A DNA stretch of 12,195 nucleotides from positions 1 to 12,195 of the IMG/VR virus record IMGVR_UViG_2675903352_000004, one strand, 5' to 3'. The translations under genes were made by a program, and so were the position numbers. Source of the stretch: a virus (Duplodnaviria; Heunggongvirae; Uroviricota; Caudoviricetes). The notes beneath the pieces were generated by a model. The model saw only the letters and a program-made list of their open reading frames with translations. It had not been told where the DNA came from and did not search any database. This document shows positions 11,939 to 12,195 of the stretch, piece by piece (position 1 is the first letter of the stretch; each line of letters begins with the position of its first letter).

Positions 11939-12123
11939 ATGTACCAGATGGAAAAAATCACAACAGGTGTGTCATACACCACGTCAGCGGTGGGGACGGG
12001 ATACTGGTTACTGCAGCTGCTGGACAAAGTCTCTCCATCCCAGTGGGTGGCGATAGGTGTGCTAGGGAGCTTGGTTTTTGGCCTGCTGACGTACCTGACA
12101 AACCTTTATTTCAAGATAAAAGA
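11939..12123 (+). pseudogene. S: Holin S (Stx-phage/lambdoid type, MYQM dual-start motif), interrupted after ~61 codons by an IS2-like insertion
   Basis: [61 protein letters not shown] matches the lambdoid Stx-phage holin N-terminus as I recall it. At 12124 the sequence switches to an IS terminal repeat. GGGAGACGGGG Shine-Dalgarno-like run upstream. Confidence 0.75.
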
Positions 12124-12195
12124 TGGATTTGCCCCTATATTTCCAGACACCTGTTATCACTTAACCCATTACTGGCCTGCTGCCGTAGATATTCC
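12124..12195 (-). mobile_element. Terminal ~72 bp of an IS2-like insertion sequence (IS3 family), including the terminal inverted repeat. The element continues beyond the window.
   Basis: TGGATTTGCCCCTATATTTCCAGACACCTGTTATCACTTAACCCATTAC… closely resembles the IS2 right end as I recall it (TGGATTTGCCCCTATATTTCCAGACATCTGTTATCACTTAACCCATTACAAGCCCGCTGCCGCAGATATTCC), roughly 90% identical. Confidence 0.75.
12135..12195 (-). CDS. 3' end of the IS2-like transposase (OrfB C-terminus …[19 protein letters not shown], stop at complement 12135-12137). The 5' part lies beyond the window.
   Basis: The minus-strand translation of the window edge matches the C-terminus of the IS2 transposase as I recall it (…[19 protein letters not shown]). 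Confidence 0.6.

Follow-up and report, generated by a model that had tools for sequence, protein, structure and literature searches.

The late operon of lambdoid phages is transcribed by a Q-modified, terminator-resistant polymerase, and in the phage 21 pinholin S21 71 the lysine of the N-terminal extension (MKS) is the source of the antiholin character. C-terminal truncation of S21(68) "does not negatively impact" pore formation, the tail being "largely dispensable for assembly" down to K56 (...LYFK), and the 56-residue S21 core retains pore formation as a fusion to unrelated ring-forming proteins (bioRxiv 10.1101/2021.04.20.440580). SAR endolysins produced without a holin are released spontaneously and cause a later and more gradual lysis (PMC9239132). 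The Rho-dependent terminators of IS2, assayed with a galEP3 reporter, are passed by RNA polymerase under antitermination (PMC3737525). Many of the IS-damaged prophages of O157 Sakai are still inducible, and an IS located upstream of the lysis genes of its prophage Sp5 left phage transfer possible (PMC2669165).

We analyzed a stretch of 12,195 nucleotides from a virus of the Caudoviricetes (IMG/VR record IMGVR_UViG_2675903352_000004, positions 1 to 12,195; hereafter the window), in which a holin gene of the phage 21 type runs into an insertion sequence at the right edge. Taken as a whole, the explanation that we consider very likely is a recent transposition of an IS2-group element into codon 62 of the pinholin gene of a lambdoid prophage, with lysis probably altered or delayed and not abolished. 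The event is an ordinary IS2 insertion into a member of a known gene family in a known kind of prophage, and as such is already known. The following features were assigned at the right edge:

11872 to 11900, plus strand: terminator-like hairpin with T-run between the esterase gene and the holin gene (consensus scan; candidate)
11939 to 12123, plus strand: 5' part of a class II (phage 21 S-type) holin/pinholin gene (Pfam PF04971, allele identity)
12119 to 12123, no strand: AAAGA, predicted target-site duplication adjoining the IS end
12122 to 12195, plus strand: continuation of the holin frame in IS2 antisense sequence, without a stop up to the window end (translation)
12124 to 12195, minus strand: terminal 72 bp of an IS2-group (IS3 family) element with the right (transposase-distal) inverted repeat (nucleotide matches)
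12135 to 12195, minus strand: last 19 codons and stop of the IS2 transposase, InsD/OrfB (translation; end set by analogy with the coding sequence at 2515-3743 of locus L002, an E. coli IS2 variant)

The holin gene up to the junction

The holin ORF starts with an ATG at 11939 and comprises 61 complete codons and two further bases, so that the junction reads GA|T. Its first 62 residues matched the family profile of the bacteriophage P21 holin S (PF04971) with 101.6 bits over profile positions 1-58 of 64, the curated cut-off being 26 bits, and all 185 nucleotides (185/185) were identical to the intact 71-codon alleles of two related prophages (L008 and L010). The description of the gene as normal for about 61 codons, given in an earlier sequence-only reading of the window, was thus accurate. 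In both relatives the uninterrupted target is AAGATAAAAGA|AGACAAGCG, and the intact allele continues past the junction as ...K-EDKRKAARGE*, ten codons beyond the 61 of the window. The intact 71-codon allele of E. coli 14EC007 is collinear with the window holin up to 12123 (AAGATAAAAGA) and unrelated beyond this position, and the matches of all complete E. coli genomes and of the closest relatives end at 12123-12127. A second in-frame Met is found at codon 4 (11948-11950). The gene has a Met1/Met4 dual start like that of S21 71/68 (11939-11950), with an N-terminal extension (MYQ) that contains no lysine, and some annotations of the relatives place the gene start at Met4. Upstream of the gene, the terminator-like hairpin at 11872-11900 is a candidate only, the count of such hairpins not exceeding the shuffle expectation.

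Hydropathy and an alignment to S21 place TMD2 at residues of about 34-57 with a hydropathy peak of 2.28, while the TMD1 region is weakly hydrophobic. Both TM segments as well as the membrane-proximal lysines after TMD2 are kept in the clipped holin, whose last native residue aligns with residue 58 of S21. The native charged C-terminal tail is missing, EDKRKAARGE being replaced by IS2-derived sequence after K61. A charged tail of 10-16 residues was present in all divergent genuine members of the family. An intact holin of such a length in related phages had been named beforehand as evidence against a truncation; among the representatives and in the alignment, none of the genuine family members ended near residue 61. 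A natural short holin was rejected on these grounds, the 63-aa match P0159 appearing to be frameshifted. The window gene is a truncated/fused allele of the family and not an intact class II holin. Since the tail is kept in all genuine members it is probably under selection and the truncation aberrant; timing or membrane anchoring would be the most plausible object of this selection.

The IS2-group end at the right edge

The break follows position 12123, and the IS terminal repeat begins with the very next base (12124). The segment 12124-12195 begins TGGATTTGCCCCTATATTTCCAGACA, and an IS2-type right inverted repeat, starting TGGATTTGCCCC, is present at the junction. All 72 nucleotides (72/72) were identical to L002 at 2504-2575, while 67 of 72 (93%) agreed with IS2A of K-12. 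Ends annotated as IS3-family transposase matched this segment in thousands of E. coli replicons, the best IS-end matches, found in several E. coli genomes, being 100% (75/75, E=1e-29). The earlier proposal of a holin cut by an IS2-like insertion is confirmed by these matches to IS2-group ends, the lack of any IS match having been its named counter-evidence. An IS2-group element, which the window enters at the right inverted repeat, interrupts the holin at codon 62.

The coding strand of the element is the minus strand of the window, antisense to the holin. The 19-residue C-terminus encoded there agrees with K-12 InsD at 17 of 19 amino acids, and the transposase C-terminus on the opposite strand had therefore been recognized correctly. 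The complete IS2 copy of L002 spans 1331 bp (TGGATTTGCC...GGCCAGTCTA), is flanked by the 5-bp duplication GGAGA, has both inverted repeats and encodes a two-ORF transposase (orfA/orfB) with a programmed -1 frameshift. Compared over its full length with the annotated K-12 IS2A, this variant shows 95.9% identity, the commonly used convention for IS isoforms being about 95% identity or more, against 93% for the 72 bp in the window. Because complete IS2 copies carry 5-bp duplications (GGAGA in L002, GTCAC in the parallel case L016 described below), AAAGA at 12119-12123 is predicted to be the duplicated target in the window.

Multi-copy IS sequence lies at both ends of the window, which is typical of short-read contig ends and raises the question of an assembly artefact, in which a mis-join at a repeat attached the 72 bp to a holin that is in fact uninterrupted. 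A chimeric join is not expected on the exact first base of an IS terminal repeat, a coincidence far beyond chance; moreover, the target is perfectly contiguous in the relatives, and the left edge likewise consists of a canonical IS end with a target-like decamer. We regard such an artefact as hardly credible.

The fusion frame and its foreign tail

From the junction onwards the holin frame stays open to the end of the window, which holds 24 of the foreign codons. If the IS is complete, 59 foreign residues would be added, resulting in a 120-aa fusion. The predicted tail, composed from the window and the L002 element, is non-hydrophobic with a net charge of -2, compared with +1 for the native tail EDKRKAARGE. 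An identical 120-aa fusion was not present in the protein database, in which independent holin::IS2 fusions were found instead.

More than 1000 called proteins end in an IS2-antisense tail of about 58 residues (GFAPIFPD...LVWA), including P0007, P0018 and the lysozyme::IS2 fusion P0010. Where the frame permits, gene callers routinely carry the ORF of an interrupted host gene on into the right IS2 end, and such IS2-antisense extensions are a systematic source of spurious fusion proteins.

Relatives, recency and parallel insertions

The prophages in CP043262.1 (L008/L019), an accession that a paper on complete genomes of Escherichia albertii cites, and in CP117620.1 (L010) are 99.8-99.95% identical to the window over 89-12123. 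In these relatives an intact holin heads the lysis cassette, directly upstream of the SAR endolysin and spanin genes (a 165-aa lysozyme followed by a 154-aa Rz-like gene), and the stop codon of the holin and the start codon of R share bases (TAATG). The lysozyme is a full-length match to the solved phage 21 and RrrD lysozymes (3hde, 4zpu), which identifies the ancestral cassette as one of the phage-21 pinholin/SAR-endolysin type. Searches for the exact 30-42-nt junction gave no match among complete E. coli genomes, representative genomes, metagenomes and viral contigs, and exact-protein look-ups with the esterase and the 611-aa ORF returned near-identical prophages, none of which carried the insertion of the window. 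Since the junction is absent from all collections searched and near-identical relatives are intact, the insertion is recent and strain-specific. The sequence-only reading had suggested a domesticated or cryptic prophage; the damage is indeed seen, but it is recent, and the near-identity to intact relatives argues against long-term domestication.

Two further holins are interrupted by IS2. In OZ038680.1 (P0004/L016) a different holin is cut at codon 32, and the full structure comprises IS2, the 5-bp duplication GTCAC, the rest of the holin, R and Rz, the IS2 itself being broken by another IS3-family element. In CADGCY010000054.1 (P0001/L015) the holin is cut at the second-to-last codon. Both resemble the window in the IS2 end, its orientation and the reading frame into the GFAPIFPD...LVWA tail, but they affect other holin alleles at other positions in other prophages, so these holin::IS2 cases are independent events. 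In L014 (12215-14722) an IS66-family element lies in the same holin allele as that of the window, together with a deletion of about 20 codons. Insertion positions differ between the parallels, and there is thus no hotspot. If the clipped holin is still pore-forming, with its regulatory tail exchanged for IS2-derived sequence, the repeated IS events in pinholins of lambdoid prophages with effector or esterase genes (the window, L014, P0001 and P0004) might reflect selection for a retuned or blunted lysis, a route to domestication in E. albertii/E. coli and not random damage; this reading as a whole seems quite improbable to us.

The prophage lineage is peppered with independent IS insertions (L014, L008 and L010). 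L008 carries an IS66-family element in O, upstream of the iterons (1-200), and L010 a K-12-type IS2 between PerC-like and DUF3950 genes (14062-15301).

These comparisons also bear on whether the IS2 is a rearrangement boundary: IS2 copies might have recombined, or a deletion or inversion next to the IS might have occurred, so that the 3' end of the holin, R, Rz and the structural genes were lost or moved elsewhere and do not follow the IS. In favour of this, each edge of the window is the end of a different IS, with the contig apparently broken at repeats; IS-associated deletion also occurs in the lineage, as the IS66-family insertion of L014 came with the loss of about 20 codons in the same holin; and heavily eroded versions of the prophage exist (L023 and L020). 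However, a clean IS terminus inside an otherwise perfect allele is what a simple insertion predicts, L016 represents such a simple insertion with its duplication and with R/Rz downstream, and direct evidence for a deletion is absent. A rearrangement is therefore rated as unlikely, though a contig that stops within an IS gives no information on whether the genes downstream are still there. With the simple insertion that we prefer, the far junction would read ...GGCCAGTCTA-AAAGA-AGACAAGCGTAAGG, also written as ...GGGGGCCAGTCTA-AAAGA-AGACAAGCGTAAGGCTGCGAGAGGTGAATAATGCC, followed by R. The window stops 72 bp into the IS, and it is the analogy with L016 that would place R and Rz beyond it.

Consequences for lysis

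A recent transposition into codon 62 would have left a complete IS2-group element of 1331 bp flanked by the AAAGA duplication, and past the IS one would expect AAAGA, the last ten holin codons and then R (SAR endolysin) and Rz. The 120-residue product would keep a releasable TMD1, a pore-lining TMD2 and the membrane-proximal lysines. The most likely consequence would be a pore-forming core that still works, with a shift in timing or efficiency. R and Rz would be pushed 1.3 kb downstream of an untranslated stretch with Rho-dependent terminators, through which the Q-modified polymerase should read. The Q protein is encoded in the window (PF03589), and no intrinsic terminator-like site, sought as a cause of polarity, was found in the IS2 variant. 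Because the pore core is kept and Q-modified polymerase should pass the IS2 terminators, lysis after induction would probably be altered or delayed, not abolished. The published S21 truncations suggest that the retained core may suffice for pinholin-type pore formation. On the other hand, the foreign 59-residue tail could destabilise or mislocalise the holin, and conservation of the native tail suggests an in vivo role (timing, topology, stability) despite the tolerance of its loss in the over-expression pore assay. With the overlap of S stop and R start gone, any translational coupling of R to S would be lost as well.

Stronger effects are conceivable, in that the insertion might inactivate the holin and/or silence R and Rz by polarity, leaving a cryptic cargo carrier without host lysis. 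The charged tail conserved in all genuine family members, the Rho-dependent terminators in IS2, the lost S stop/R start overlap, the disruption of O/ori by a second IS and the IS-disrupted holins of other lineage members (L014) are consistent with this outcome. Yet the pore core is kept and S21 tolerates truncation or fusion at the same point, SAR endolysins lyse without a holin, Q antitermination should override the IS2 terminators, and the insertion is too recent, near-identical relatives being intact, to support an argument from selection or domestication. A real lysis defect caused by this insertion is a possibility that we consider doubtful, if less so than a rearrangement. The statement of the sequence-only reading that the prophage is probably lysis-defective is not upheld, as only the last ten codons are lost, the TMDs are kept, the S21 tail is dispensable for pore formation and a SAR endolysin lyses, later and more gradually, without a holin. 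With the pore core kept and a cassette type that uses a SAR endolysin, the holin lesion alone should not be read as "no lysis".

The left edge

Two further features were assigned at the left edge of the window:

1 to 90, no strand: end of the IS4-family element ISEc60, ending ...GGGGATCCCTCAG (97-100% matches to many independent ISEc60 copies)
91 to 627, plus strand: 3' part of replication gene O, starting inside the ori iterons (relatives, iteron sequence)

ISEc60 terminal sequence with an adjoining target of about 10 bp was seen here, and in relatives whose O is intact (299-312 aa), the match to the window begins at position 89. The end of ISEc60 was defined on an independent copy in motA (L027; 1000-1010 and 2276-2300), which ends ...GGGGATCCCTCAG and is flanked by the 10-bp duplication GGAAAGTCCC. 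The corresponding decamer of the window (91-100) is GGAAAATCCC, part of a lambda-type ori iteron inside O. Comparison of GGAAAATCCC with GGAAAGTCCC suggests a sequence-specific ISEc60 target that lambda-type iterons may happen to contain. Independent ISEc60 copies match the window through position 101. The ISEc60 match (1-101) and the phage match (from 89) have 13 bp in common, which might have pointed to a chimera; this was rejected, the overlap being explained by the conserved target decamer that adjoins the IS end.

The ISEc60 insertion splits O, separates its N-terminal part and interrupts the iteron array. The closed O frame, previously taken as a sign of prophage damage, thus reflects damage in outline, while the closed frame itself is the end of the ISEc60 insertion. 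ISEc60 in O/ori is better evidence for a (replication-)defective prophage than the holin truncation, and where the inducibility of this cargo-carrying prophage is concerned, O/ori disruption is a stronger predictor of defectiveness than the holin lesion. Since multi-copy IS sequence is present at both edges, the window may well represent a short-read contig that ended at repeats. For annotation, the ORF at the right edge should be given as a holin pseudogene/fusion interrupted by IS2 and gene O as interrupted by ISEc60; beyond the annotation of the window strain the significance is small.

Other genes in the window

A 617-aa ORF (611 aa from the second Met) at 3552-5405 on the minus strand lies between ninE and the HNH endonuclease gene in an AT-rich island (GC 0.33-0.39, about 3001-6600). 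It had no Pfam or PADLOC match and matched only PHROG 9230 (function unknown). A protein identical to the 611-aa form was found in about 2700 assembly blocks, making it a very widespread prophage cargo that is too common to be diagnostic. The second AT-rich island (8526-9528, plus strand, GC 0.35-0.40), downstream of Q, contains a 252-aa multi-pass membrane ORF, whose homolog in the relatives carries PF27470 (TfpB), and a 52-aa ORF with a TciB-like/DUF3927 match (PHROG 1470, cell-division inhibition or colicin resistance). Together with the SASA/DUF6645 esterase (9864-11717), the ORFs of this second island occupy the slot that holds stx in Stx phages. For the large AT-rich ORFs, neither Pfam nor PADLOC scans yielded a function.

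The Rfam family STnc100 (RF02076) matched at 9540-9774 (plus strand) over its full length with 89.9 bits, ending at a strong terminator-like hairpin (9745-9763). The match is possibly a short late-promoter leader transcript, in which case the two AT-rich ORFs (8526-9528) would be situated between Q and the late promoter/terminator.

Comparison with known systems

IS2A of K-12 (NC_000913.3 381260-382590) shares the terminal repeat and the transposase C-terminus with the element of the window, which is a sequence variant with five differences in the 72 bp seen. The E. coli variant with the 72/72 match resembles IS2 in its two-ORF/frameshift transposase, its length of 1331 bp and its 5-bp duplication.

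The window holin is about 80% identical to the phage 21 pinholin S21 over 61 residues. Like S21 71/68 and the DLP12 EssD homologs (PF04971), it has the two-TMD layout and the Met1/Met4 dual start, and as in S21, the holin of the relatives is directly upstream of a phage-21/RrrD lysozyme and Rz. Unlike S21, the window allele lacks its native 10-residue charged tail and reads into IS2, and its extension is MYQ without a lysine instead of the MKS of S21 71. In being cut after TMD2 and joined to an unrelated protein it resembles the engineered S21(56) fusions of the FuN screen (bioRxiv 10.1101/2021.04.20.440580), and it keeps two more native residues than the functional S21(56) core. Whereas the FuN constructs were designed, over-expressed and provided with chosen linkers, the tail in the window would be accidental IS2 antisense sequence expressed from the phage late promoter.

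With its cargo genes and with IS in essential modules, the prophage is similar to the lambdoid prophages of O157 Sakai (Asadulghani et al. 2009, PMC2669165). The Sakai lambdoid prophages all keep the full lysis gene set, whereas in the window the holin is clipped and O/ori has been struck by a different IS.
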